Source: a bacterium HR16 (lineage in GTDB: Bacteria; Armatimonadota; HRBIN16). From it: a stretch of 64,000 nucleotides of DNA. The DNA is taken from the NCBI GenBank assembly GCA_002898895.1, contig BEHS01000001.1, forward strand, positions 7,106-71,105, given 5' to 3'. This document shows positions 4,903-62,052 of the stretch, piece after piece. The notes beneath the pieces are model-generated. The model did no database searches. It had not been told where the DNA came from and saw only the letters and a program-made list of their open reading frames with translations. Position numbers and translations under genes: made by a program. The stretch's first letter is position 1; each line of letters starts with the position of its first letter.

Positions 4903-5036
4903 GAAGGGCGAGCCTCCCGGTGAGCCAGAACGCCCCACCTGACCTCCCTGCACGCGGGGAGGAGTATGGATATTGTCTCCCTGCAAGCAGGGGGACGAGA
5001 GGGGTGGCTAACGGCTCGGCAGGAGTCTCGCCCTCC
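4903..5036. repeat. MITE-like composite hairpin element (family-2 terminal inverted repeats GGAGGGCGAGGCTCC..CCGAGCC)
   Basis: GAAGGGCGAGCCTCCCGGTGAGCC at the left end and its inverted complement CGGCTCGGCAGGAGTCTCGCCCTCC at the right end. Related copies at 31974-32110 and 39647-39773. Confidence 0.6.
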
Positions 5037-5045
5037 GAATGTTTG

Positions 5046-5071
5046 TCCTGGAGGATCGTGCTCCGTCGCGA
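5046..5071. repeat. family-3 short hairpin repeat (GGAGGATCGTGCTCCGTCGCGACC)
   Basis: Near-identical copies at 39780-39803, 61875-61897 and 61915-61937, and inverted at 23657-23681. Confidence 0.5.
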
Positions 5072-5082
5072 CCAAAAACAGA

Positions 5083-15027: not shown

Positions 15028-17064
15028 ATGTCTCGTGTTCCTCGTTTGGTCGCGGGTCTACTGAGCTGGGCGTTTATCGTGTTTGTTGTTGCTCCCGCGC
15101 TCGCACAGATTAACTACCCCAACTTCAGCTCCTCAGCGGGGCTGAATCTGGTAGGCAACGCGCAGGTCACGGCGAACAGGCTCCGCCTCACCGAGAACCG
15201 TATGAGTCAGCAAGGGGCTGCGTGGTACGCCACCAAGCAGAACCTGACGAATGGCTTCTCGACCACCTTCCAGTTCCAGTTGCATGGGCCGTCCCCTGAG
15301 GATGGTCTGGGCTACGGATTGGGGTTCCACATTCAGAACGTCTCGGCGACCCTGAACGTCAATGAGACGGGCACTACCGGAACCGTCACCGTGAGCTTCG
15401 CCACCTTCTACCAGACGCCGGAGGGCGACTTCCCCAACGTAGTAGCGGTTTACGTGAACGGCACGCTGACAGGCGCCACCAGCCTCTTCCCCAACACCAT
15501 TAACATCAATGACGAAGGCGTGCACACCGCACGCATTGACTACGCAGGGGGCTGGCTGACCGTCTCCGTGGACAACGAAGCGGTGCTTTCGCTGGCTGTT
15601 GACCTCGCAGCCGCCGGCGCGATCGATAGCTCCGGCGCTGCATGGGTAGGCTTCAGCGGACGCACGGTATACGCTTACGAGAACACCGATGTGCTCAACT
15701 GGACGCTGACTCCGTTCATCTCGCCCGCCCGCACGTTGATTATTCTGGGCGACAACCCGTATGAGGGAGCAAACGTCACCGTATCGCCCACCGACCTGGT
15801 AAACACGGGCGACGGAGTGACCCCCTTCGTGCGCGTGTATCCTGCAGGTACACCCGTTACGTTGAACGCAGCAACCCTCGCGCCTGATGGCAACGAGTTC
15901 GAGAAATGGCAGATTGACGGCGTCGACTACTCCGGCGACCCCGAACTGCAGATAACGCTGGATGACAACCACATCGTGACGGCGGTGTACGAGTCCACCA
16001 AAGCCCCTGTGTGGGATACCGGCGCGCCGAAGACGGTCATCTTCAACAACCAGGAAGTGTACCTGGGCTACGTCTCCGGCAACTATTCAGCGACGCTACC
16101 CCAGCGGTGGTCCGCCATTCCCTTCCGTATCCCGACAGGCGGTGCGCTCGTCAGCCAGGTAGATGCGGACTGGTTCGTGGTGGATGGCTATCAGGGCGCG
16201 AACGTACGCTACATCATCTGGCGACGTACCGGCTTGAACCGACCGGTGGATGGAGACCAGGTGGCGCAGGGCGTGCTGGGTGCATACTCCGCAGGCATGG
16301 ACGACCCACGCGTCCCGGGTGGCGAGGACTGGCTGCACCGCTACTCTAACCTGAACATCCTCCTGCCGGAGGGCGATTACTACCTGACCATCTACGCGGA
16401 CGGCATCGGAGCCGGAAACACAACCGGTTTTAACGCGCTTGCGTGGCTGACCGGTGCCGACCTGCAGCCCTCAGAGGTGGAGCAGGACTTCATGTGGCGG
16501 TCGCGTTACTTCCCCAACCCCGGCTTCGAAGTGTACGCGCCAAACGCTATCCAGCCCAAAGCAGGACAAGACCCGAAGGACCGCTGGAACTGCGCCTTTG
16601 TGCTGTACGGCAAGCTGGCGGTCATTCGTGGAAACGTGGCGCTGGGCGACTACGGCGGCGACCCCTCGCTGGTTCCCATCTCCGTGCGCCTGCGTAAAGA
16701 GGGCGGCGGCGAGGAGACCCGCACCGTCTTCACCGACCGCAACGGCAACTACTCGCTGTGGGTAGAGCCGGGCACCTACGAGGTTTCCTTCAAAGCCAGC
16801 CACTGGCTGCGCGTGAATCTGACGGATGTCACGCTTGGACTGGCGGAAGAGGTCACCGGACAGAATGCCACGCTGACCAACGGCGACATCGACGGCGACA
16901 ACGAGGTCACGCTGTTCGACTTCGGTGGACTGGTGGCAGCGTTTGGCTCGATGCCCGGCGATAGCAACTGGAACCCCGATGCCGATCTGGACGGAGATTT
17001 AGAGGTCACCCTGTTCGACTTCGGCATCCTGGTTCGCAATTTCGGCGCGATTGGAGACGAGTAA
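15028..17064 (+). CDS. secreted protein: legume(L)-type lectin-like domain, carboxypeptidase-regulatory-like domain and C-terminal dockerin-like double repeat
   Basis: Signal peptide. N-terminal lectin-like segment. C-terminus TLTNGDIDGDNEVTLFDFGGLV...DADLDGDLEVTLFDFGILVRNFGAIGDE, near-identical to the C-terminus of the 35417-36916 product. Confidence 0.6.
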   Translation: MSRVPRLVAGLLSWAFIVFVVAPALAQINYPNFSSSAGLNLVGNAQVTANRLRLTENRMSQQGAAWYATKQNLTNGFSTTFQFQLHGPSPEDGLGYGLGFHIQNVSATLNVNETGTTGTVTVSFATFYQTPEGDFPNVVAVYVNGTLTGATSLFPNTININDEGVHTARIDYAGGWLTVSVDNEAVLSLAVDLAAAGAIDSSGAAWVGFSGRTVYAYENTDVLNWTLTPFISPARTLIILGDNPYEGANVTVSPTDLVNTGDGVTPFVRVYPAGTPVTLNAATLAPDGNEFEKWQIDGVDYSGDPELQITLDDNHIVTAVYESTKAPVWDTGAPKTVIFNNQEVYLGYVSGNYSATLPQRWSAIPFRIPTGGALVSQVDADWFVVDGYQGANVRYIIWRRTGLNRPVDGDQVAQGVLGAYSAGMDDPRVPGGEDWLHRYSNLNILLPEGDYYLTIYADGIGAGNTTGFNALAWLTGADLQPSEVEQDFMWRSRYFPNPGFEVYAPNAIQPKAGQDPKDRWNCAFVLYGKLAVIRGNVALGDYGGDPSLVPISVRLRKEGGGEETRTVFTDRNGNYSLWVEPGTYEVSFKASHWLRVNLTDVTLGLAEEVTGQNATLTNGDIDGDNEVTLFDFGGLVAAFGSMPGDSNWNPDADLDGDLEVTLFDFGILVRNFGAIGDE

Positions 17065-17067
17065 CCC

Positions 17068-18045
17068 TCATCCCCGTGCCCCCTCTCCCGAAGCTTCAGG
17101 AGAGGGGGCTACACCTGCGCTGGCAATCAGCGTGCGTGGGGGGATAAAAGCGATGTCCTCCCGGGCGGTCTCCAGTGTCTGCACGGGAACATGCTCATGC
17201 CCCTTCAGCAGTTCACCGATGATTGCCTCCACCGAGCTTTCCGGCGTGGAGGCGCCACTCGTGATACCCACCGAGCGGTAGTCGGTGCGCCATTCGGGAA
17301 GCACCTCTTCGGGCTCCAGCAGCAGGTATGCGGGCACACCCGCCTCCTGTGCCACCTCGCGAAGCCGGTTGGAATTACTGCTGGAGCGGCTGCCGATGAC
17401 CAGTATCAGGTCGCATACCTTCGCCAGCTCCTTCACCGCGTTCTGGCGGTTGGTGGTCGCGTAGCAGATGTCCTCTTTGGGAGGCGTTTCGAGGTGCGGG
17501 AAACGTCGTCTCAGCACCGCCATGATACGCTCCACCTCGTATACGCTCAGGGTGGTCTGCGTGGCAACCGCAAGTTTGCCGTCCGGTACCTGCACGCGCT
17601 CGGCATCCTCTACCGTCTGCACCAGCGTGATTTGCCCGGGTGCGTGTCCCATCGTGCCTAAGGCTTCTACGTGTCCGGCGTGTCCGATGTAAATAATGTG
17701 GTAGTCCTGCGAAGCGAAACGCTGTACCTCGCGGTGCACCTTGGAGACCAGGGGACAGGTAGCATCGATTACCCGCAGGTTGCGCTCCGCCGCCGCCTGT
17801 CGCACTGCGGGCGACACACCATGTGCGCTGAAGACCACCGTCGAGCCCGGCGGGATTTCCGATACCTCTTCCACAAAGATAACCCCGCGTCGCTCGAACG
17901 AGTGCACCACATGCTCGTTATGTACAATCGCGTGGCGCATGTATATCGGTGTGCCGTACGCCTTAATCGCCAGGTCCAGTACTTCTATCGCGTACGACAC
18001 GCCGGCGCAAAACCCGCGCGGCGAAGCCAGAACGATACGCTCCAT
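17068..18045 (-). CDS. ispH: 4-hydroxy-3-methylbut-2-enyl diphosphate reductase IspH/LytB
   Basis: SPRGFCAGV, ATCPLV and conserved Cys ligands. About 15-residue C-terminal tail (SPEASGEGARG) encoded by the hairpin. Confidence 0.9.
   Translation of the reverse strand: MERIVLASPRGFCAGVSYAIEVLDLAIKAYGTPIYMRHAIVHNEHVVHSFERRGVIFVEEVSEIPPGSTVVFSAHGVSPAVRQAAAERNLRVIDATCPLVSKVHREVQRFASQDYHIIYIGHAGHVEALGTMGHAPGQITLVQTVEDAERVQVPDGKLAVATQTTLSVYEVERIMAVLRRRFPHLETPPKEDICYATTNRQNAVKELAKVCDLILVIGSRSSSNSNRLREVAQEAGVPAYLLLEPEEVLPEWRTDYRSVGITSGASTPESSVEAIIGELLKGHEHVPVQTLETAREDIAFIPPRTLIASAGVAPSPEASGEGARG
17080..17107. terminator. GC-rich hairpin (CCCCTCTCC-N10-GGAGAGGGG) between convergent genes
   Basis: Perfect 9-bp stem. 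The same CCCCTCTCCC...GGGAGAGGGG hairpin follows the paralogous dockerin gene at 36928-36956. No U-tract. Confidence 0.4.
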
Positions 18046-18104
18046 TGCGTCCTTTCCCTTTGCTCTATGTTTACTCTGGGCGAATGCGCATTGCCGTCCA
18101 TTTT

Positions 18105-18245
18105 GTTATGCTGAACGAAGTGAAGCATCTCCGAGATTCTTCGCTTCGCTCAGAATGACAACCTTTTACTGTCGTGCTGAGCGTCAGCGAAGCATCTCAG
18201 CGTGACGATAAAACGAGATTCTTCGCTCCCCCTCAGAATGACAGG
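18105..18245. repeat. family-1 hairpin repeats (GTCATTCTGAGCGAAGCGAAGAATCTC paired with GAGATGCTTCGCT..CTCAGCATGAC), two units
   Basis: Imperfect inverted 27-nt arms. Further clusters at 22157-22294, 23423-23603, 38174-38250 and 46481-46592. Confidence 0.65.
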
Positions 18246-22156: not shown

Positions 22157-22294
22157 TTGTCATGCTGAGCGTTGGCGAAGCATCTCGCTCTTTTTGTCAT
22201 GCTGAACGCAGTGAAGCATCCCGGAGATTCTTCGCTCCGCTCAGAATGACAGGGAAACCAGCCCATCGTGCCATGCTGAGCGAGGCATCTCATT
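22157..22294. repeat. family-1 hairpin repeat cluster (four arms)
   Basis: TTGTCATGCTGAGCG..GAAGCATCTC and GAGATTCTTCGCTCCGCTCAGAATGACAGG. Confidence 0.6.
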
Positions 22295-23422: not shown

Positions 23423-23603
23423 CCTGTCATTCTGAGCGCAAGCGAAGAATCTCGCTCCATCGCCACAAAAAGATGCTTCGCTCACGCTCAGCATGACAGT
23501 AAACGGTTGTCATTCTGAGCGAAGCGAAGAATCTCCAAGATGCTTCACTTCGTTCAGCATGACAAAAAGGCGGGATGCCGAGCGTCAGCGGAGCATGACA
23601 AAA
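23423..23603. repeat. family-1 hairpin repeat cluster (five arms)
   Basis: CCTGTCATTCTGAGCGCAAGCGAAGAATCTCGC ... GATGCTTCACTTCGTTCAGCATGACAAA. Confidence 0.6.
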
Positions 23604-23623
23604 AACACGCCGAACCTGCTTGG

Positions 23624-23720
23624 GAGGGTGAGGCTCCTGCCGAGCCGTTCGATTTCGGTCGCGACGGAGCGCGATCCCTCCAATCCAGTTGCGGGGAGGG
23701 CGAGGCTCTTGCCGAGCCGA
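23624..23720. repeat. family-2 / family-3 / family-2 composite hairpin repeats
   Basis: GGGAGGGTGAGGCTCCTGCCGAGCCG, inverted GGTCGCGACGGAGCGCGATCCCTCC, then GGGGAGGGCGAGGCTCTTGCCGAGCCG. Confidence 0.55.
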
Positions 23721-31961: not shown

Positions 31962-31973
31962 CACATCCGCGTG

Positions 31974-32110
31974 GAGGGCGCACCTGCCGGCAAGCCGGTT
32001 TAGCCCCCACCCCAGCCCTTCCCGCGAGCGGTGAGGGAGCGGTTCCTCCCCCGTCCACGGGGGAGGTCAGGAGGGGGCTTCACACGGCTCGGCAGGAGCC
32101 TCGCCCTCCA
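31974..32110. repeat. MITE-like composite element (137 bp) with about 25-bp terminal inverted repeats and central CCTCCCCC-GTCCAC-GGGGGAGG hairpin
   Basis: About 85% identical to 39647-39773. TIR GGAGGGCGCACCTGCCGGCAAGCCG / CGGCTCGGCAGGAGCCTCGCCCTCC. Confidence 0.65.
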
Positions 32111-34051: not shown

Positions 34052-35308
34052 TTATCCCAACACCACCAGCGCGTCCTCCGGCGTGGTGACCACCTGCGCC
34101 CCGCTTGCCTTCAGCCGCTCTATGATTTCCATCGCCTGCCCGCTGGTGAAGTCGCGCTCCTGCCAGTTGCAGTCCGCCAGCAGCACCCGTTTGCCCGCCC
34201 GTTGCGCCTCCTCTACCGCCTGCAGGTTCGCCAGGTTGCCGTATCCAAACGCCACCGGCGCAACGAGTATCGCATCCGCCCTCGCCAGCGCGTCGCGCAG
34301 TAGGGCAAGGCTCTCGGCTGAGATGGGCGTGAACGGCGCCTCCGTGATGACCTCTGCGCCCAGCTCCTGCGCTACCTCCTCGTCGCTATCCAGCAGGTGC
34401 AACACCCCCACCGAAAGATGCCATCCCGCCCGCGCCAGCGCGCCAATCCATCCCGCGCCCGTCCCTCCACCGCAGATCACGTGCACACGCCTGCCGTTGC
34501 CCGCCTGCGACTCCACGTGCTGTAACGTGCGTGGCAACACATGCGGACGCCCCGTCGCCGGATTCACCCGTACCCACGCATCCAGACCGAACACCCGCGC
34601 CAGCAGGGAGGGGGTAATCACCTCCGACGGCGCACCGTCCGCCACCAGCTGCCCCTGTCGAAGCACAACCAGCCTGTCGCAGAACTCTGAAGCGAGGTTG
34701 ATGTCGTGTAGCGCCGCCAGCACCGTCAACCCCTCTTCGCGATTGAGCTGGCGCAGTAGCGAAAGCGTGCCCACCTGATGCGCTACGTCTAGGTGCGTCA
34801 ACGGCTCGTCCAGAAACAGCAAGGGCGTCTCCTGCGCTAACCCACGCGCCAGCACCACCCGCTGACGCTCGCCACCGCTGAGCGTGCCGAAAGCGCGTTC
34901 CGCCAGCGACAGGCTGTCCGTGCGCTCCATCGCCCGCCGAGTCGCCTGCATGTCCTCCGCGCGCTCTTTGCCCCACCAGCCGATGTACGGCGCGCGCCCC
35001 AGCAACACCACCTCCCACGCGGTGAAACCGAACGCCACGTCCTCACGCTGGGGCACAAACGCCAGCCTCTGCGCCACATCCTTCGCCCGCAGCTGAGCCA
35101 GCGGTTGTCCGTCCAGCCACACCTGTCCCTTTTGCGGCTTTAACACTCCGCTGAGCACGCGCAACAGCGTGGACTTGCCGCTGCCGTTCGGTCCCAGCAA
35201 GCCCACAAACTCACCGCGCGAGATACACAGGTTGATGCCCTTCAATACAGGCGTTGCACCGTATCCCGCCCAGATATCTTCAGCACGTACGATTTCTGTA
35301 TTCACCAT
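34052..35308 (-). CDS. ABC transporter ATP-binding protein (FecE/BtuD-like) fused to a C-terminal about 170-aa domain of unknown function
   Basis: Walker A GPNGSGKST, ABC signature LSGGERQR, Walker B LLFLDEP, H-loop. C-terminal extension with GGGTGAG Gly-rich loop. No adjacent permease or substrate-binding genes. Confidence 0.75.
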   Translation of the reverse strand: MVNTEIVRAEDIWAGYGATPVLKGINLCISRGEFVGLLGPNGSGKSTLLRVLSGVLKPQKGQVWLDGQPLAQLRAKDVAQRLAFVPQREDVAFGFTAWEVVLLGRAPYIGWWGKERAEDMQATRRAMERTDSLSLAERAFGTLSGGERQRVVLARGLAQETPLLFLDEPLTHLDVAHQVGTLSLLRQLNREEGLTVLAALHDINLASEFCDRLVVLRQGQLVADGAPSEVITPSLLARVFGLDAWVRVNPATGRPHVLPRTLQHVESQAGNGRRVHVICGGGTGAGWIGALARAGWHLSVGVLHLLDSDEEVAQELGAEVITEAPFTPISAESLALLRDALARADAILVAPVAFGYGNLANLQAVEEAQRAGKRVLLADCNWQERDFTSGQAMEIIERLKASGAQVVTTPEDALVVLG

Positions 35309-35311
35309 TGC

Positions 35312-35340
35312 TTGACAATCCGCTTGTCCGGTGCTATGAT
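35312..35340 (+). promoter_or_regulatory. sigma-70 consensus promoter TTGACA-N17-TATGAT
   Basis: Perfect -35, 17-nt spacer, -10 TATGAT. About 75 nt upstream of the HAF-protein start. Confidence 0.5.
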
Positions 35341-35416
35341 TGCTCCGCCAGCTCGGCATAAGTTTCGCCCGTTCCCACCCGGGCGAGCCTCACTGTGAGA
35401 AAGGAGTGGAAACGAA

Positions 35417-36916
35417 ATGGTTCGCCTATCAACCCTTTACGTTTTCGCCTGCGCGTTCTCCTTCGCGCTGAGCCTCTCTGCCGTCCACGCTCAGTATACC
35501 ATCACCGACCTGGGCGCGATCACCGCTAACGGGCAAAGCCGCGGCTACGGCATCAACAACCTCGGCGAAGTCGCCGGATGGTCGGATGGACACGCCTTCT
35601 TCTGGACAGGCGGTGTGCTCATAGACCTCGGCGTGCTGTCGGGTACCGCCAGCGAAGGGCGCGATGTCAACGACCTCGCACAGGTGGTCGGCTGGAGCGA
35701 TGCCGCACAGGCGCGCCATCCCTTTATCTGGAAAGACCTCAACGGCAACCGCCTCGCCGACCCGGGCGAGATGGTGGACCTGCGTCCCATCCCCAATACC
35801 TGGCAGGGCAGAGCGTACGGCATCAACAACGCCGGGCACGTGGTAGGGTGGTCTGCTATCAACCCCGATGGGGTGTACCACGCCTTCCGCTGGAGTTACA
35901 ACACAGGCGGCTGGTGGGACTGGTTTGACCTCGGCAACATCACCGGCAATCCCGACGAAATCAGCCTCGCTAACGACATCAACAACCTCGGACAGGTGGT
36001 GGGAGGCTCCGGCTCGGCGGGCAGCCGACGCGCTTTCCGTACACAACCCTACGCCGCTATCAACCCGCTCACCGATGCCCTGCCCTATCTGCCCAACGGC
36101 ACAACCGCCGAAGCCTTCGGCATTAACGACCGGGGTCAGGTAGTGGGCTTCTCCAACACGCGCGTGGGAACCAGCACCCTCACCCGTCCCGTACTGTGGG
36201 AGGGCAGTTCTGTTATCGATCTGGGCACACTGGGAGGCAATATCGGACGCGCGTACGGCATTAACAACCTCGGGCACGTCGTGGGACACTCCTATCTGTC
36301 GGACAACATCTCCTTACGCGCCTTCCTGTGGGTGAACGGTGTGCTTCGCGACCTCAACGACCTCCTGCCGCCAGGTTCCGGCTGGGTGCTCAACGAGGCG
36401 CGCGCCATCAACAACTTCGGACAGATTACCGGCTACGGCGCACACAACGGCATTACTCGCGCGTTCCTGATGACACCTGTGCCTACCACCGTCACCGTAA
36501 ATCTGGACGGCTACACGGGCGATTACTCCAGATTGCCCCTGCAGGTGGAGGTGCGCTCGACAACAGGGGAGACTCTGCTTACGTTCAGCCCAGCACTGAA
36601 CGCCGACGGTACGTTTCCCCTCACCCTCACGCCGACGACCTATACCCTCGCCTTCAAGGCAGACCGCTCCCTGCGCCGCGTGCTGACAGGCATCACCGTG
36701 CCGGCGGGAACCCTGGCGGTGAACCTCGTCAACGGCGACGCCGACGGCGATAACGAGGTCAGCCTGTTCGATTTCGGTAAACTGGTCGGCGCGTTCGGTA
36801 AGCTGGATGGAGAGGAGGGCTTTGAACCCACCGCCGACTTCGACGGCGACGGCGAAATCAGCCTGTTCGATTTCGGCATCCTGGTGCGTAACTTCGGGGA
36901 AGTAGGAGATGAATAA
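35417..36916 (+). CDS. secreted HAF-family repeat protein with C-terminal carboxypeptidase-regulatory-like and dockerin-like domains
   Basis: Signal peptide. Six or more GINNxGxVVGWS HAF repeats. C-terminus NGDADGDNEVSLFDFGKLV...DFDGDGEISLFDFGILVRNFGEVGDE paralogous to the 15028-17064 C-terminus. Confidence 0.7.
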   Translation: MVRLSTLYVFACAFSFALSLSAVHAQYTITDLGAITANGQSRGYGINNLGEVAGWSDGHAFFWTGGVLIDLGVLSGTASEGRDVNDLAQVVGWSDAAQARHPFIWKDLNGNRLADPGEMVDLRPIPNTWQGRAYGINNAGHVVGWSAINPDGVYHAFRWSYNTGGWWDWFDLGNITGNPDEISLANDINNLGQVVGGSGSAGSRRAFRTQPYAAINPLTDALPYLPNGTTAEAFGINDRGQVVGFSNTRVGTSTLTRPVLWEGSSVIDLGTLGGNIGRAYGINNLGHVVGHSYLSDNISLRAFLWVNGVLRDLNDLLPPGSGWVLNEARAINNFGQITGYGAHNGITRAFLMTPVPTTVTVNLDGYTGDYSRLPLQVEVRSTTGETLLTFSPALNADGTFPLTLTPTTYTLAFKADRSLRRVLTGITVPAGTLAVNLVNGDADGDNEVSLFDFGKLVGAFGKLDGEEGFEPTADFDGDGEISLFDFGILVRNFGEVGDE

Positions 36917-36927
36917 CTGACTGAACG

Positions 36928-36956
36928 CCCCTCTCCCGTCTGCGACGGGAGAGGGG
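36928..36956. terminator. GC-rich hairpin CCCCTCTCCCGTC-TGC-GACGGGAGAGGGG
   Basis: 13-bp perfect stem with 3-nt loop 11 nt after the stop. Same stem sequence as the hairpin at 17080-17107. Confidence 0.45.
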
Positions 36957-36977
36957 GCAGCCGACGAGGGCAGCTTC

Positions 36978-37295
36978 CTACCGGCTCCACACCGCCACCT
37001 TCACTGCGGGGGCGTTTCCTATTTTCAGCGTGACCACCCTCCGCACCGTGTAGCCTGCTCCGTCGCGGGAGATACTGTCGCCCTCGTTCAGCACCTCGTC
37101 TGCCGCTGTGACCCCTGCCCACATCGGACGGCTGAAACCCAGCAGGTCGTTGTCGGTAAACAGACTGCGCAACAGCCCGCTCGTCGCCACAAATACCACC
37201 ATGCGCACCGTGCGCGTGCCGTTCACTGTCACATCCTCACCGTGCCGCTTCACCAGCGACCTCAGCCGTTCTGCTCGCGTCGACATCTGCCTCAC
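36978..37295 (-). CDS. phage head-tail adaptor-like protein
   Basis: Size and position at the distal end of the head module. Weak recollection-based similarity. Confidence 0.3.
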   Translation of the reverse strand: MRQMSTRAERLRSLVKRHGEDVTVNGTRTVRMVVFVATSGLLRSLFTDNDLLGFSRPMWAGVTAADEVLNEGDSISRDGAGYTVRRVVTLKIGNAPAVKVAVWSR

Positions 37296-39621: not shown

Positions 39622-39646
39622 GATGCACCTCCTCTGCCCCCTGTCT

Positions 39647-39773
39647 GGAGGGCGAACCTGCCGGTGAGCCGATTTAGCCCCCACCGCGCGCAGGGAGAGA
39701 GCGGTTCCTCCCCCGTCCACGGGGGAGGTCAGGAGGGGATATTTCGTACGGCTCGGCGGGAGCCTCGCCCTCC
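39647..39773. repeat. MITE-like composite element (second near-identical copy)
   Basis: About 85% identity to 31974-32110 including TIRs and the central GGGGGAGG hairpin. Followed by a family-3 repeat at 39780-39803. Confidence 0.65.
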
Positions 39774-39835
39774 CCCATTGGAGGGTCGTGCTCCGTCGCG
39801 ACCACAAACGCACCCGACAGGTTCACCGCGAATCG

Positions 39836-45492: not shown

Positions 45493-46480
45493 TAGAAGAG
45501 GCAGGCTATATTGTATGGCCCGAGAAAGGGCGAGTGCCCCGCTACAAACGGTATCTGGACATGAACCCCGGTAACCTCATTCAGGACGTTATCACCGACA
45601 TCAACCCGATTTCCTCTCAAGCCCGTGAGCGTCTTGGCTATCCCACACAGAAACCTATCGCCCTGCTGGAGCGAATCATTCTCGCGTCCAGTAACGAGGG
45701 CGACGTAGTGCTGGACCCCTTCTGCGGATGCGGAACCGCCATCGTCGCCGCCCAGAAGTTGAAACGCCACTGGGTCGGCATCGACATCACTCATCTTGCC
45801 ATTGCGCTCATCAAATACCGTCTCGCCGACATGTTTGACCTGCGTGAGGGCAAAGACTACCTCGTTGTCGGCGAACCCACCACCGTCGAGGACGCCCGTG
45901 CCCTTGCCCATCATGACCGCGACGAGTTTCAGCGGTGGGCAATCGGGCTTATCCCCCGTGCCCGTCCCTATCAAGACAAAAAAGGCGCGGACACCGGCAT
46001 CGATGGCGTGCTCTTTTTCAAAGACGACCCAGACGACCCCAAGAAGGTGGTGATTCAGGTCAAAAGCGGGCACGTGGGTGTGAAGGACATTCGCGACTTT
46101 CGTGGGGTGATGGAGCGCGAGAAAGCCACTCTCGGCTTGTTCGTTACCCTTGACGAACCCACCCGCGCCATGCAGACCGAAGCGGAGAGCGTCGGCTTCT
46201 ACGTCACCCCGCTGGGCAAACTGCACCTGCCTCGCCTGCAGATTCGCACCGTCGAGCAGCTCCTGCGCGGCGAGGGTTTCCAGATACCCGGTGCGGCGAT
46301 GCTGATGGGCGTCTCCCGTGCCGAGCGCGTGCAAGAACAGTTCCGCCAGGGCGAGCTGGAGATGTAATCACGCGGACAGTGTTCACCTGCCCTGTCTTGT
46401 CCGGCAGCCGATGCTATAGACCCTGTACTGTAGAGCGCCAAGGCACGACTGCTTGAATGGGAGCAGACCGTTTCCACTTA

Positions 46481-46592
46481 CTTGTCATTCTGAGCGAAGC
46501 GAAGAATCTCGTTGTATCGCCACCCTGAGATGCTTCACTTCGTTCAGCATGACAACAAAATCCTGTCATTCTGAGCGAAGCGAAGAATCTCA
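46481..46592. repeat. family-1 hairpin repeat cluster (three arms)
   Basis: CTTGTCATTCTGAGCGAAGCGAAGAATCTCG / GAGATGCTTCACTTCGTTCAGCATGACAAC / CCTGTCATTCTGAGCGAAGCGAAGAATCTC. Confidence 0.6.
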
Positions 46593-46615
46593 AATGGCAA
46601 CGCGACCATCCTTCT

Positions 46616-46640
46616 GGAGGGCGAGGCTCCATCCGAGCCG
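46616..46640. repeat. family-2 hairpin repeat, solo copy
   Basis: GGAGGGCGAGGCTCCATCCGAGCCG. Confidence 0.5.
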
Positions 46641-46930
46641 TTGAGGGCATTGTGTTCGGCTGTAGCCGCAGGCTTATGGACTTTGAAAAAATAAAGCGAT
46701 TTAACCTCTCCCCCGGCCCCTCTCCTACAAGGAAAGGGGGGCCTCGCGTCGAATGCCCCCTTCCCTCGTAGGGAAGGGGGACAGGGGGTTAGGTTGAATA
46801 CACCTCGCCTCCAAGACCCTTCCCGAAGCTGCGGGAAAGGAGATGAGGGGATAAATACGACTATTTTTCAAAACTCATTAGCCTGCGCTTCTCCAAACAG
46901 AAGACGACTATTAGCGCACGCGCCCCCTTG

Positions 46931-57573: not shown

Positions 57574-60352
57574 CTACCAGAAGTGCATGCGCCTGCGGCA
57601 ACGCTCGGCGTCTGCGGTCGACCCTGCTTTCTCATAGTTCAGTATGGCTAAGTAATACAGTCGTGCTCGCTCGTAGCACCGAGCAGCCTCCAGAGGCATA
57701 TCAGCCTTTTCAAACCACTGCCCAGCCTCTGACCAGTTTCCCTGTTGCATGTTCCACACCCCCCCAACACCAAAAAGAGTCTCTCCCTCTGCCTGCTTGT
57801 CCGTAGCACTGAGCCGCCTTCGCGTAATCTTCCGCTCGTACGTAGCAGCTGGCCGCCTTTGCGTAATCCCCTAACCGCTGATAGCAACCGGCCGCCTTCG
57901 CGTAATCCCCTGCTCTTATATAGCAACTAGCAGCATCTGGAAGCAAATAAGCTTTTTCAAACCACTGCCCTGCTTCTAACCAGTTGCCTTGTCCTTCGTA
58001 AAACTTCCCCCAACACTGTGCGGCATCCCTTGTCCTGCTGGTTTGCTCGTAACATCTTGCAGCATTGGAGTAGTCCTTCGCTTGCTCATAACACCGACCC
58101 GCGTTGGAGTAGTCCTTCGCTTGCTCATAACACCGACCCGCGCTGGAGTAGTCCTTCGCTTGCTCATAACACCGACCCGCGTTGGCATACTGCCTTTCCT
58201 TCTAGTACAACTCCGCAGCTTCCTCGAGACGTCCAGACCATTCCATCCGCCGTGCCCTAGTCCAGATAGCTGGGTTTGTTGTCAATGCCTCATAGCTCCT
58301 CACCACCACCCTCTCCGCCGCCTCCCACGCGCTCAGCCATTGCTTGCTCAGCTTCGGCAGCGAAGGGGGCAAGCTCTGGGGGGTGTCTTCCACAACCACC
58401 AGCCCCCTCCGCGCTCGCGTCAGAGCCACATACAGGCGCGAGAAAGCCTGCAGACGGAGCACCGGAGACCTTCGCACCTGTTCGTGCATCCGGGAATAGA
58501 TGTTGAACAAAATGACCCGGTCGAACTCCAGGCCCTTTGCCTCTTCCACAGAACACAGCAGCGCGCCGTGCTGACCCAATTGCTGTGCTATGGGAATGTT
58601 TTTATCGCTTTCATCCCACACGATAACCGCTCCCTGGTCGCCAAGCCACTCCGCCAGCTGTTGCGCGCTGAGGGCAGGTGAATCGAGCGTTGCAGCAGCA
58701 GGAGGCAGTCCATCTAACAGCGCCGTCACATGGTAATCCGGCATTTCATCGAGGTCGTATTCCCTCTTGATCCGTTCGAGCTCCCCCTGCACGAACAGGG
58801 CAATCTGTCGGCTGTTGCGCAGGTTCAACTTCAGCGAGCCTTCCAGAACCGTTACCTCTTGCGAAAGCCTCCTGACAAGCCTGTTCCAGTGGAAACCGGA
58901 CGGACGCAACGCCTGGAAGGGGTCACCGGTGAGGAACAGCCCCGCGGGATGCCGTACCAGGCGCATGAGCAACATCCACTGCACTTCGCACAGGTCCTGA
59001 ATCTCGTCCACATATACGCCGTCGTATGAAGCGACGACCTTTTCGGGTTGTTCCCACAGCTTACGGCTCAGGTCCAGCTCGTCCGATCCGCCGATTGGGA
59101 ACCAGGTTTGGATGGCAGCAAAGATTGCCTCGCGCTCTTGCACAGAGAAGTCACTCGCCGCATTGTGCAAATAGCCTTCGCGGTCCAGTAATTGGCGCGT
59201 TTGCCAGTTGAGCTGACCTTTGATGACGTCCCAGTATTCTGCCCACAATGTCTCCTCATCCCAGGGGAACTCCCTGTGGCGACGCTTCCACGACCTGAGA
59301 GGCTCTTTCAGGTTCCCCATCTTCCAGACCTCTTTGACACGCTGGTACGCCTCATGAAACTGCCTGCGCATCTCGGTGTAGCTCTCTATCCGTACGTTGG
59401 GGAACCAGCGGCTTAACATATCTTCGTAGCTGAGAATATCTACCCTCTCCAGTAACTCCCGTCCTCTCGGTAAGTGCTCAAAGAGCAGCTGACACAGGGA
59501 GGTTAACGTCGGCGAATAGGTGACCACCAGATACCTGCCGGCGGGGTTCGCTCGAGCCTGACGATATAAGTGATAGAGCAGGATGGTGGTTTTGCCGCTA
59601 CCTACCGTTCCGCTCAGCAGTAGCGGACCCGGCTTCCGCACGAACTCCATCTGCTCCGGCAAGAGGTGCAGCAGGAAATCTTCGTCGCTCTGCGCGAGAT
59701 GCTCGATATCCTGCTCAATACGGTCCAGGCCGATCTCCAAAAACTCCTGCGCGTCATACAGGCTCTCCTGCTCCACCGATGACGCTTGCTCCAGCCACCA
59801 TTCCTCACCCCTGTAGTGCGGGCGGATGTACTGGTTGAGCACACTCTTACCTGTCTTAACCTCCCTTTCCACTATCGAGAGAGGCACGGTAGGATACTCG
59901 GGCAGTTTGCTGATGCCTATTTCCTCCAGTATGCCTTGTTCGTGCAGGCTGCTCGCAAGGCACAGCTCTTCCGCCTGATGGAGCGAATCATACGAGATAC
60001 GGCGGGCGGCGCTCAGGGCATCGTCATGATGGTCTACGTCCCACACAACAATACGGTCGCGCAAGTGGTTGCCATCCGAGCGACCTGTCCCTCCGTTTGC
60101 ACCGCCGTACTCGTGGGCGGGTTGTATGGTGAAGATGAGGCGCACATCACGGTTGACTCGCGCCTCGAACACGGGACGGTCAACACCTTTGAGACGTTTC
60201 ATGCGCAAGCCGAGGTGGTCGGTTTGCCCTTCGCAGAGCAAACGCACGCATTTGCTCACCTGGTCGTGTGGTAAAGCCTTTTCTCTCAGTTTCTTCTGTA
60301 CCCTGCGATGGAGGACGACGCTGCGCTTCATGAGCACCCTCTCTGGAGACAA
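57574..60352 (-). pseudogene. UvrD-like SF1 helicase with RelE/ParE-like N-terminal domain and C-terminal 13-residue repeat array, interrupted by in-frame TAG (58202-58204) and a frameshift (about 57740)
   Basis: Walker A GTVGSGKTT, motif II DEIQD, motif VI VALTRARRGL. After TAG the same frame continues KERQYANAGRCYEQAKDYSSAGRCYEQAKDYS... to 57710, then a shifted frame continues to 57574. Confidence 0.6.
58067..58183. repeat. perfect 39-bp tandem repeat x3 (GGAGTAGTCCTTCGCTTGCTCATAACACCGACCCGCGYT), coding for 13-aa units
   Basis: Three head-to-tail copies differing at one position. Degenerate 39-bp units continue to about 57780. Confidence 0.85.
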
Positions 60353-60552: not shown

Positions 60553-61869
60553 ATGAGCGTTCTGTTTGTCCTACTCCCCGCGCTGGCGATGTGCCTGGGG
60601 TGGGGTATTCGTGGACAGTTTGGTGGCGAGACGGGCGCGATGGTGCCCGGCGCGATGGTGGGGCTCGCGCTGGCGATGCTGGCAGGCTGGAGGGGCAAAG
60701 AGGCAGCGCGTCTGGCAGCGGTAGCAGCCTTCGCCTGCTCGTTGGGCGGAATGATGACCTACGGGCAGACCATCGGGCTGGTGCAAAACCAGTACCCCTC
60801 ACCGACCTACTGGTGGGGGCTGCTGGGATTGGCTATCAAGGGTGGCGTGTGGATTGGCATTACCGGTGCGTTTCTGGCGATAGCCACCAGTGACCGCTAT
60901 CGTCCGGGGGAACTGCTGGCGATGATTGTCGGCATGTTCGTGCTGGGCGCGATTGGCATGCAGCTGCTCAACCGCCCGCATAACCCACCGGAGCAGTTGC
61001 CCCTCATCTACTTCTCCGCGCGGAACGACCCCAAGCCGCGTGTGGAGTGGTGGGGTGGACTGTGGTTCGCGCTCATCGGCTTGATGGCGTACACCGGCGC
61101 GTTCAAGAAGCACCGGCAGGCGGTGGCGATGGCGCTATGGGGCATCGTGGCGGGAGCCATCGGTTTCAGCTTCGGCGAGGTGCTGCAGGCATGGGGAACG
61201 CACCAGAAACCCTTCGGCGAGGCGGTTCAACGCTGGATGGACTGGTGGAAGGTAATGGAGATGACCTTCGGCTTCATCGCAGGCGCAGGGCTGGGCATCG
61301 GCTGGAAGGTTACCGGACTATCGGCTACTCCGCCCCCCAAACCCCAAACCTGGCACCGCCGCTGGGACGACCTCACCATCTTGCTCTGGCTGATACCGGT
61401 GCTGGCGGTGGAACTGGGCATCGGCTGGGCGAAAGGATGGGAAAAACTGCCTGCGATATGGATGCTGATTGGACTGCTGGGCAGTCTGGCAGGTAGCGGC
61501 TGGGCGCCGTTCGGCACGGGCGTGGCGGTCACGCTGGTTTCTGCGAGCAATACGGTGCTTTATCTGGTGGACGAGCGCAAACTGCTCGCCTTCGGCTGGG
61601 GCTTCGCCGGTTTGGTGGTTCTGTTGTTCATCACCGCCTACCTCTCCGCGCTCTGGCATCGGCGGGAGGTGCCTGCGCGCACCTGGTGGCTGTGGACGGT
61701 ATGGATGCAGACGGGGCTGACGTGGGCGAAGTATCTGCCGGAGGTACTTTTGAAACCCGACGAGCGCAACTGGTTCGTGCGCTGGGGTTCGGGAGGCGTA
61801 GTAGAGATGAGTTTTGTGGTGCTGGCGGTGATACTTACCCTGCTGGTCTCCACACGCAAGGAGGTTTAA
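60553..61869 (+). CDS. polytopic integral membrane protein, unknown function
   Basis: About 12 predicted TM helices, Trp/Gly-rich. No soluble domains. Confidence 0.5.
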   Translation: MSVLFVLLPALAMCLGWGIRGQFGGETGAMVPGAMVGLALAMLAGWRGKEAARLAAVAAFACSLGGMMTYGQTIGLVQNQYPSPTYWWGLLGLAIKGGVWIGITGAFLAIATSDRYRPGELLAMIVGMFVLGAIGMQLLNRPHNPPEQLPLIYFSARNDPKPRVEWWGGLWFALIGLMAYTGAFKKHRQAVAMALWGIVAGAIGFSFGEVLQAWGTHQKPFGEAVQRWMDWWKVMEMTFGFIAGAGLGIGWKVTGLSATPPPKPQTWHRRWDDLTILLWLIPVLAVELGIGWAKGWEKLPAIWMLIGLLGSLAGSGWAPFGTGVAVTLVSASNTVLYLVDERKLLAFGWGFAGLVVLLFITAYLSALWHRREVPARTWWLWTVWMQTGLTWAKYLPEVLLKPDERNWFVRWGSGGVVEMSFVVLAVILTLLVSTRKEV

Positions 61870-61874
61870 CCCGT

Positions 61875-62052
61875 TGGAGGGACGCGCTCCGTCGCATCCG
61901 CAAAATCAACCTGTTGGAGGGACGCGCTCCGTCGCGTCCTGAATACAGCGGTCACGATGGAGCGTGACCCTCCAGCAGGGCAATCGGTGAGAGTACAGTT
62001 ACAGCCGCAGATACCTGATCGGATGGACGGCTCGGACGGAGCCTCGCCCTCC
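61875..62052. repeat. cluster of family-3 (x2 direct, x1 inverted) and family-2 (inverted) hairpin repeats
   Basis: GGAGGGACGCGCTCCGTCGC at 61875 and 61915. GGTCACGATGGAGCGTGACCCTCC at 61950. CGGCTCGGACGGAGCCTCGCCCTCC at 62028. Confidence 0.55.

Follow-up and report, generated by a model that had tools for sequence, protein, structure and literature searches.

Why two secreted proteins that have nothing else in common should end in the same tail, and what that tail is for, is the question raised by a stretch of 64,000 nucleotides (nt) from the genome of bacterium HR16, a member of the Armatimonadota (assembly GCA_002898895.1, contig BEHS01000001.1). The whole stretch is called the window here and has a GC content of 59.6%. 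Two of its open reading frames (ORFs), named A and B, share a C-terminal module, and the stop codon of each is followed closely by a hairpin. It is concluded below that the tail is one dockerin fused to a β-sandwich, homologous to the X-module–dockerin (XDoc) dyad of cellulosomal scaffoldins, and that it is a lineage-expanded tag on unrelated secreted proteins. The hairpin is a promiscuous palindromic element resembling the repetitive extragenic palindromic (REP) sequences, and is not part of the module. The host belongs to a hot-spring-type, thermophilic lineage of Armatimonadota. The coding features are as follows.

15028-17064, + strand: ORF A, 678 amino acids (aa), from the ORF call.
16624-16875, + strand: X-module of ORF A, a seven-strand β-sandwich like those of transthyretin and CarboxypepD_reg (module residues 1-84), from the AlphaFold2 model and its superposition on the X-modules of CipA and ScaA.
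16876-17061, + strand: dockerin of ORF A, with repeats DIDGDNEVTLFDFGGLVAAFG and DLDGDLEVTLFDFGILVRNFG, each a DxDxDxxxxxxD loop plus helix, and a C-terminal GDE.
35417-36916, + strand: ORF B, 499 aa, from the ORF call.
36476-36913, + strand: XDoc module of ORF B, with the X-module at about 36476-36724 and the dockerin at 36725-36913.

Read by eye, ORF A begins with a Sec-type signal peptide at about residues 1-26, and ORF B with a signal peptide at about residues 1-25. Residues 37-183 of ORF A form an L-type-lectin-like domain, which Pfam scores below its gathering threshold (Lectin_L-type_dom, E 9e-8). The middle region has no Pfam family match, and the tail matches CarboxypepD_reg (E 5e-7) and Dockerin_1 (E 0.006). 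ORF B consists of six HAF repeats (TIGR02913 HAF_rpt, E 7e-49, in six stretches) followed by the C-terminal module, which is a divergent subtype (GKLDGEEGFEPTADFDGDGEISLFDFG). By BLASTP, residues 537-678 of A align with residues 361-499 of B (about 146 aa) at 48% identity (E 1e-27); identity is 68% in the dockerin part, namely the last 63 aa, and the rest of the two proteins is dissimilar. Only the tails align, which bears out the original prediction that two unrelated secreted proteins share a C-terminal module, and the motif quoted in it is correct. No third copy of the module was found in the window by tblastn.

A dockerin is made up of two repeats of about 22 residues, each consisting of a 12-residue EF-hand-like calcium loop (D or N at positions 1, 3 and 5, and D at position 12) and a helix. 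The tail has this composition: a predicted helix comes after each of the calcium loops DIDGDNEVTLFD and DLDGDLEVTLFD, giving dockerin repeats of the PF00404 type. In an alignment of 22 modules there are 27 invariant columns, nearly all of them in the dockerin half, where the invariant pattern is two DxDxDxxxxxxD loops, with (T/S)L(F/L)DFGxLVxxFG after each of them. The tail was at first described as double dockerin-like, but two loop and helix repeats are the normal make-up of a dockerin, and a single dockerin is the better description.

The identity of the module as a whole comes from its structural relatives. The AlphaFold2 model calculated from the module alignment is confident, with a predicted local distance difference test score (pLDDT) of 96.5 and a predicted template modelling score (pTM) of 0.88, and has a seven-strand sandwich at residues 1-84 together with helices at residues 97-106 and 130-139. 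In a Foldseek search against the PDB, ranks 1-10 are all X-module–type II dockerin dyads, from CipA, CipB and ScaA (149-158 aligned columns, E 6e-10 to 1.5e-7, TM scores of 0.73-0.77 and root mean square deviations of 2.6-3.9 Å), and the predicted dyad superposes whole on 2b59_B, 5k39_B and 4wi0_B among others. Transthyretin-like carboxypeptidase domains are found at rank 11 or below, and cover the sandwich alone. The carboxypeptidase-regulatory-like domain proposed at the outset is thus present, but as the X-module of an XDoc dyad.

Searches with the module profile lead to the same place. The XDoc chains 2b59_B, 4wi0_B, 4u3s_B, 5k39_B, 3kcp_A and 5g5d_B are matched at E 4e-12 to 5e-11, and the match spans both halves in five of the six, that to 5k39_B beginning at query position 29; the free type II dockerin 2y3n_B is matched at E 1.8e-5. 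In the predicted model the X-module lies directly N-terminal of the dockerin and the two are packed together, as in an XDoc dyad. Because the profile and the fold match the same scaffoldin chains, the module is an XDoc homologue.

The XDoc of CipA from Clostridium thermocellum (PDB 2B59, 3KCP, 4FL4, 5G5D) is similar in having a C-terminal β-sandwich directly joined to, and packed on, a two-repeat dockerin, and further relatives are CipB (5K39, 5M0Y) and ScaA from Acetivibrio cellulolyticus (4U3S, 4WI0). There are also clear differences. Sequence identity to the scaffoldin XDoc is only 17-23%, the host belongs to the Armatimonadota and not to the Clostridia, and the dyad is borne by many ordinary secreted proteins and not by a scaffoldin. 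Whereas the type II dockerin of CipA is asymmetric, the two Armatimonadota repeats are near-identical (EVTLFDFGxLVxxFG twice), like those of symmetric type I dockerins.

How widespread the tail is was examined in several ways. A protein search gave 125 relatives, of which those with names come nearly all from metagenome-assembled genomes (MAGs) of Armatimonadota or Chthonomonadetes (HR16, KatS3mg022/023 and others), with several per genome; among the homologues listed, the 120 that have a name are MAG proteins of Armatimonadota type. Some of the Armatimonadota relatives already bear the NCBI name ‘dockerin type I domain-containing protein’. The search for further genes ending in the module, suggested in the original prediction, was made in GTDB species genomes and confirmed at least 213 copies, the best 80 of which lie in nine Armatimonadota MAGs. 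Locus statistics were taken from 1.14 Mb of related loci from those genomes. These contain 89 genes in which the module reaches the stop codon or lies next to it, and each genome of the sample has 5-17 of them. A set of 91 tblastn matches includes one that runs off its contig, leaving 90 with a stop located, and 84 of these end exactly at the stop codon, most of them with GD(E/D).

The proteins that carry the tail, here called passengers, are diverse, with at least 21 unrelated N-terminal clusters among 79 module genes. By Pfam they include subtilase with Big_3_5, PA14 with CARDB, fn3 with CBM4_9, LVIVD and NHL propellers, and several without a family; others are lectin-like or have HAF repeats, and many have no recognised family. 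The tail is a lineage-expanded tag on unrelated secreted proteins, because its best 80 copies lie in nine MAGs, on at least 21 N-terminal architectures. A cellulosome, in which carbohydrate-active enzymes with dockerins are assembled on a scaffoldin of cohesin repeats, is not indicated by the passengers and loci examined, which include one CBM4_9 and no scaffoldin.

Dockerin-like modules are reportedly found outside cellulosomes, in adhesin-like or unknown proteins. The Armatimonadota dockerin resembles these in occurring in an organism without a cellulosome, but it is fixed with an X-module, is (nearly) always terminal, and numbers as many as 17 in one genome of the sample. As a lineage-specific C-terminal tag on unrelated Sec-exported proteins, the tail also resembles the C-terminal domain (CTD) of the type IX secretion system (T9SS), PEP-CTERM and LPXTG. 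One alternative is that the tail serves for export or sorting, being read by outer-membrane machinery in the manner of the T9SS CTD or PEP-CTERM, and possibly removed later. The position of the module at the extreme C-terminus (84 of 90 without an extra residue), the many unrelated Sec-exported passengers, the restriction to one lineage, and the lack of a cohesin in the examined loci and ORFs all speak for such a signal. However, XDoc has no similarity to these tags and no hydrophobic or transmembrane end, and it has significant homology, in sequence and in fold, to a known protein–protein docking dyad. Its repeat faces moreover appear to be conserved as they are in the cohesin-binding dockerins of one organism. 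A strictly C-terminal signal would also forbid relatives in which the dockerin comes first. Because such relatives exist, it is less likely that the tail acts purely as a C-terminal signal for export, and we regard a sorting signal as an unlikely explanation of the tail.

In the dockerin-first relatives (P0100-P0111, P0114, P0117 and P0120) the signal peptide leads directly into the dockerin, and an X-like sandwich with a KASHWLR motif comes next. One of them also has an fn3-like stretch, and several look truncated or frameshifted. These proteins were considered as dockerin–cohesin adaptors, and were rejected because the second domain is an X-like module with the KASHWLR motif. A recurrent gene pair was also seen, in at least three genomes, in which a secreted fibre-like repeat protein of about 800 aa is encoded directly upstream of a protein of 226-233 aa; the latter consists of a short N-terminal domain and the XDoc module. 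The larger protein, considered as a cohesin candidate where it lies upstream of a 228-aa XDoc gene, looks fibre-like and not cohesin-like. The pairs are located as follows.

L080, 7299-10687: gene pair.
L079, 7277-10441: gene pair.
L077, 8006-10441: gene pair.
L070, 2541-4201: gene pair.

In another locus (L082, 8831-10354, from GCA_026003175.1) a 356-aa ORF is followed 100 nt later, and on the same strand, by a 117-aa ORF call comprising XDoc only, which may be part of a split or frameshifted XDoc gene.

The shared tail had been attributed to module shuffling by recombination. Such shuffling has taken place, because an HAF-repeat protein from MAG RSWS16 (L002) bears the module of the lectin protein. 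Over its final 149 aa it shares 87% identity with the ORF A module, which makes it as close to that module as are the modules of the true orthologues of ORF A. The homology to ORF A starts sharply at ‘AVIRG’, and the upstream part resembles the HAF region of ORF B. This swap and the 21 or more N-terminal clusters support shuffling in general, but A and B are not themselves recent recombinants. Their modules have 57% nucleotide identity, and at identical residues 38 codons are identical, against 29.1 ± 4.0 expected from window codon usage (z 2.2). Recent gene conversion would give synonymous identity well over the codon-usage expectation, and this is not seen. Because their synonymous sites are near random, the two window copies are old paralogues with no recent exchange.

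ORF B is not present in all relatives. In MAG SRR5214706_bin.3 (L039, 4841-5020), ORF B, a promoter-like site and the hairpin are missing, with about 180 nt in their place. Compared with this locus, the ORF B region (35296-36980) represents a 1.7-kb insertion or deletion of the entire XDoc gene, between an ABC-ATPase gene and phage-like genes. The promoter-like site is as follows.

35312-35340, + strand: sigma-70-like promoter match upstream of ORF B, TTGACA-17-TATGAT (11/12 with TG), a consensus match only.

We turn now to the hairpins, which follow each stop codon after 11-13 nt and have the form CCCCTCTCC(C)/(G)GGAGAGGGG. The features concerned are as follows.

17065-17110: REP-like element A, with leader CCCTCATCCCC, spacer GTG and then the palindromic hairpin at 17078-17109.
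17078-17109: hairpin A, paired stem GCCCCCTCTCC/GGAGAGGGGGC, beginning 13 nt past the TAA of ORF A.
36928-36956: hairpin B, CCCCTCTCCC-GTCTGCGAC-GGGAGAGGGG, loop N9, beginning 11 nt past the TAA of ORF B.
46817-46848, − strand: degenerate REP relative (CCTCATCTCCTTTCCCGCAGCTTCGGGAAGG), in a multi-hairpin REP array away from any XDoc gene.
17068-18045, − strand: ispH/lytB ORF, convergent with ORF A (PF02401 LYTB, E 5e-93).

A and B are the only hairpins of the type CCCTCTCC...GGAGAGGG in the 64 kb, and none was found in 100 shuffles. On folding as RNA they have minimum free energies of −29.6 kcal/mol (A, z −3.1) and −35.7 kcal/mol (B, z −3.9). The 3′ arm of hairpin A, GGAGAGGGG, is one base away from a perfect palindrome, and the perfect form is found in the metagenome contig L133; this contig is 98.8% identical to the window, compared to 88-92% for MAG KM4338-44. 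Hairpin B has a stem of the same family, no CCCTCA leader and another loop. The common part of A and B is therefore the stems alone, and the spacers and loops differ. The same hairpin was said to lie downstream of both genes, which is right in that both are present 11-13 nt past the stops but holds for the stems only.

Hairpin A falls within the final 13 codons (APSPEASGEGARG) of the ispH/lytB ORF, whose TGA stop, 3 nt away from the TAA of ORF A, is read from the complementary strand of the REP leader CCCTCA. In the orthologue from KM4338-44 (L001) the leader is CCCTCG and the ispH stop is lost, so that the ORF would extend into the dockerin antisense.

A metagenome scan for the 28-nt palindrome alone found at least 85 exact copies in at least 80 contigs with a GC content of 47-69%. 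Among the copies listed, 71 of 85 have the CCCTCACCCC flank, on one side only, and only 5 of 85 abut an XDoc gene. Relatives of the element also occur in REP arrays, in related loci and at 46480-46850 in the window. There are thus many near-identical intergenic copies, in unrelated contexts and with an asymmetric flank, which is what defines a REP-like element. REP and other bacterial interspersed palindromic elements are likewise short GC-rich intergenic palindromes, often between convergent genes, dispersed, in some cases in arrays, and with an asymmetric flank. The window hairpins share a GC-rich stem with intrinsic terminators but differ from them in having no U-tract; T-rich tails are present in some of the copies in other genomes. 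Searched against Rfam, the 3′ region matched nothing beyond a miRNA by chance (E 0.68), and no literature was found on this family of repeats with polypyrimidine/polypurine stems. In some metagenome contigs the 28-nt palindrome and its flank were also seen as tandem repeats with a period of 367, 149 or 219 nt, at the following loci.

L111, 6927-7688: tandem palindromes.
L099, 3810-4204: tandem palindromes.
L136, 4145-4321: tandem palindromes.
L141, 2615-2861: tandem palindromes.

The original prediction took the hairpin to be specific to the module and inherited with it, as a cassette; in other words, module and hairpin would be one recombination unit copied onto the 3′ ends of genes. In its favour, the related loci (1.14 Mb) hold 23 hairpins of the CCCCTCTCCC/GGGAGAGGGG type, and 14 of the 23 lie within 60 nt of the stop codon of an XDoc gene (odds ratio 18, p 5e-10). 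Among three paralogue groups the 43-nt flank TAR-CCCTCAYCCCCTTGCCCCCTCTCCCGAAGCTTCGGGAGAGGGG is 89-96% identical while synonymous codon identity in the module is 0.25-0.81, and the swapped L002 module retains the same flank. The decisive observation is that the leader and palindrome are widespread, with 5 of 85 listed exact copies at module genes, and because of this the hairpin is counted as a REP-like element that does not belong to a cassette. In addition it is sporadic within orthologue groups, being found in 7 of 21 clusters and usually in one or two members, while the other members have unrelated hairpins. Modules that have the hairpin form no cluster of their own (mean identity 0.64, against 0.61-0.63), and A and B, which share stems alone, have coding parts that are synonymously saturated. 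Synonymous identity has no gradient toward the 3′ end, which argues against the cassette and was also the reason for not attributing the conserved flank to gene conversion at the 3′ coding end. The cassette is thus largely refuted, and we consider it highly improbable.

It could also be proposed that the hairpin functions as a 3′ RNA element specific to XDoc genes, with a role in stability, localisation or regulation and under selection at the nucleotide level. Its fold is very stable, it is enriched behind XDoc genes, and the flank is better conserved between paralogues than are synonymous sites. However, it is absent from 75 of the 89 XDoc genes, it is found in many unrelated contexts and organisms, it has no match in Rfam, and as a palindrome it carries no strand information. 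We therefore give this proposal little credence. A strong hairpin of some kind follows 45 of the 89 module genes. The REP-like nature of the element carries a general caution, namely that palindromes shared behind paralogous genes may be dispersed REP-type elements, and need not imply common descent.

What, then, might the tail do? In clostridia, pairs of XDoc and type II cohesin fasten cellulosomal scaffoldins to the cell surface. Because the module is homologous to this anchoring dyad, the XDoc tail is probably a calcium-dependent surface anchor. A surface anchoring or sorting role had already been suggested for the dockerin-like repeats, and of these anchoring is the better reading, by analogy with XDoc. 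The passenger would be exported by Sec, after which the dockerin would bind Ca2+ and fold, and the folded XDoc would dock the passenger non-covalently on one common cohesin-like receptor at the surface. A single common receptor would explain why the dockerin half is near-invariant across paralogues and the passengers and X-module are variable. Over evolutionary time the module has moved among genes, with A and B long diverged. The hairpins, in convergent intergenic gaps, may stop transcription or stabilise mRNA 3′ ends.

As an explanation of the whole, an XDoc dyad that has multiplied as an anchor tag, with old paralogues in the window and separate REP hairpins, is the best available, and we hold it with moderate confidence. 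Several observations weigh against it. The Pfam Dockerin_1 matches score 17.2 and 18.5 bits, under the gathering score of 22.9. The passengers are mostly not carbohydrate-active enzymes, and the clostridial analogy may not transfer. Armatimonadota are generally regarded as bearing an outer membrane, which XDoc proteins would need to cross. Around three XDoc genes of MAG GCA_026003175.1, none of the neighbouring gene calls is a cohesin (PF00963), a result for these loci only and not for the whole genome. The hairpins A and B have no U-tract and neither was called in a terminator scan, and they are not intrinsic terminators in this sense. Finally, the hairpin follows 14 of 89 XDoc genes as against 9 of 879 other genes, and its REP nature does not by itself account for this enrichment. 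It may come about because these genes are convergent and monocistronic, because the element inserts at the TAR stop, or because the conserved 3′ coding end seeds ectopic conversion.

The cohesin-like partner for which a search had been recommended was not found in the examined loci, in the window ORFs or in 1.9 Mb of sequence. There is no cohesin in ten window ORFs scanned singly, nor among the top 25 families of a scan of 52 window ORFs, and a low-sensitivity phmmer search, using a CipA cohesin sequence, found no match in 1.9 Mb (7,627 ORF segments). The highly conserved tail is present on about twenty unrelated secreted proteins per genome, and a pull-down or a fold search across the proteome should therefore be able to reveal its partner.

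A bolder proposal can be made only tentatively, and we think it more doubtful than not: that this is a system of cohesin–dockerin surface display unrelated to cellulose, in which a symmetric XDoc would anchor up to a few dozen different passengers, adhesin-like and enzymatic, on one receptor, and in which the REP element would spread preferentially along the conserved 3′ ends of the XDoc genes. If this is true, XDoc would be an ancient general anchoring device and no speciality of clostridial scaffoldins, and the REP element would spread by ectopic conversion or by insertion at stop codons.

A literature search for dockerins in Armatimonadetes, or for XDoc outside cellulosomes, found nothing relevant. 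Full XDoc dyads homologous to scaffoldin anchors, expanded as a C-terminal tag on non-cellulolytic passengers in one Armatimonadota lineage, are thus apparently undescribed. Although the XDoc dyad has been described structurally so far for clostridial scaffoldins only, homologues of it can be recognised in a distant phylum. The role of cohesins and dockerins outside cellulosomes is a long-standing question, for which this lineage provides a clean case. The tail is also a possible thermostable display tag.

Several other features of the window were noted. Directly downstream of ORF B, from 36981 to about 46364, are Mu-like phage genes (Portal_Mu, a Mu-like gpT major head protein and two N6/N4 methylases). 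The first of the Mu-like genes are syntenic in another species (L039), at about 72% identity, because of which the cluster may be an old or domesticated prophage. Other intergenic repeat families are also present, for example TGTCATTCTGAGCGAAGCGAAGAATCTC and GGCTCGGCAGGAGCCTCGCCCTCC, often as hairpin arrays. Intergenic repeats lie at the following sites.

5006-5079: intergenic repeat.
18100-18200: intergenic repeat.
22158-22255: intergenic repeat.
23425-23720: intergenic repeat.
31972-32110: intergenic repeat.
39646-39810: intergenic repeat.
46480-46850: intergenic repeat.
61868-62052: intergenic repeat.

Direct repeats with a period of 39 nt (D1/D3) lie at 57797-58185, just past the 3′ end of a minus-strand ORF for a UvrD-like helicase (58205-60352).

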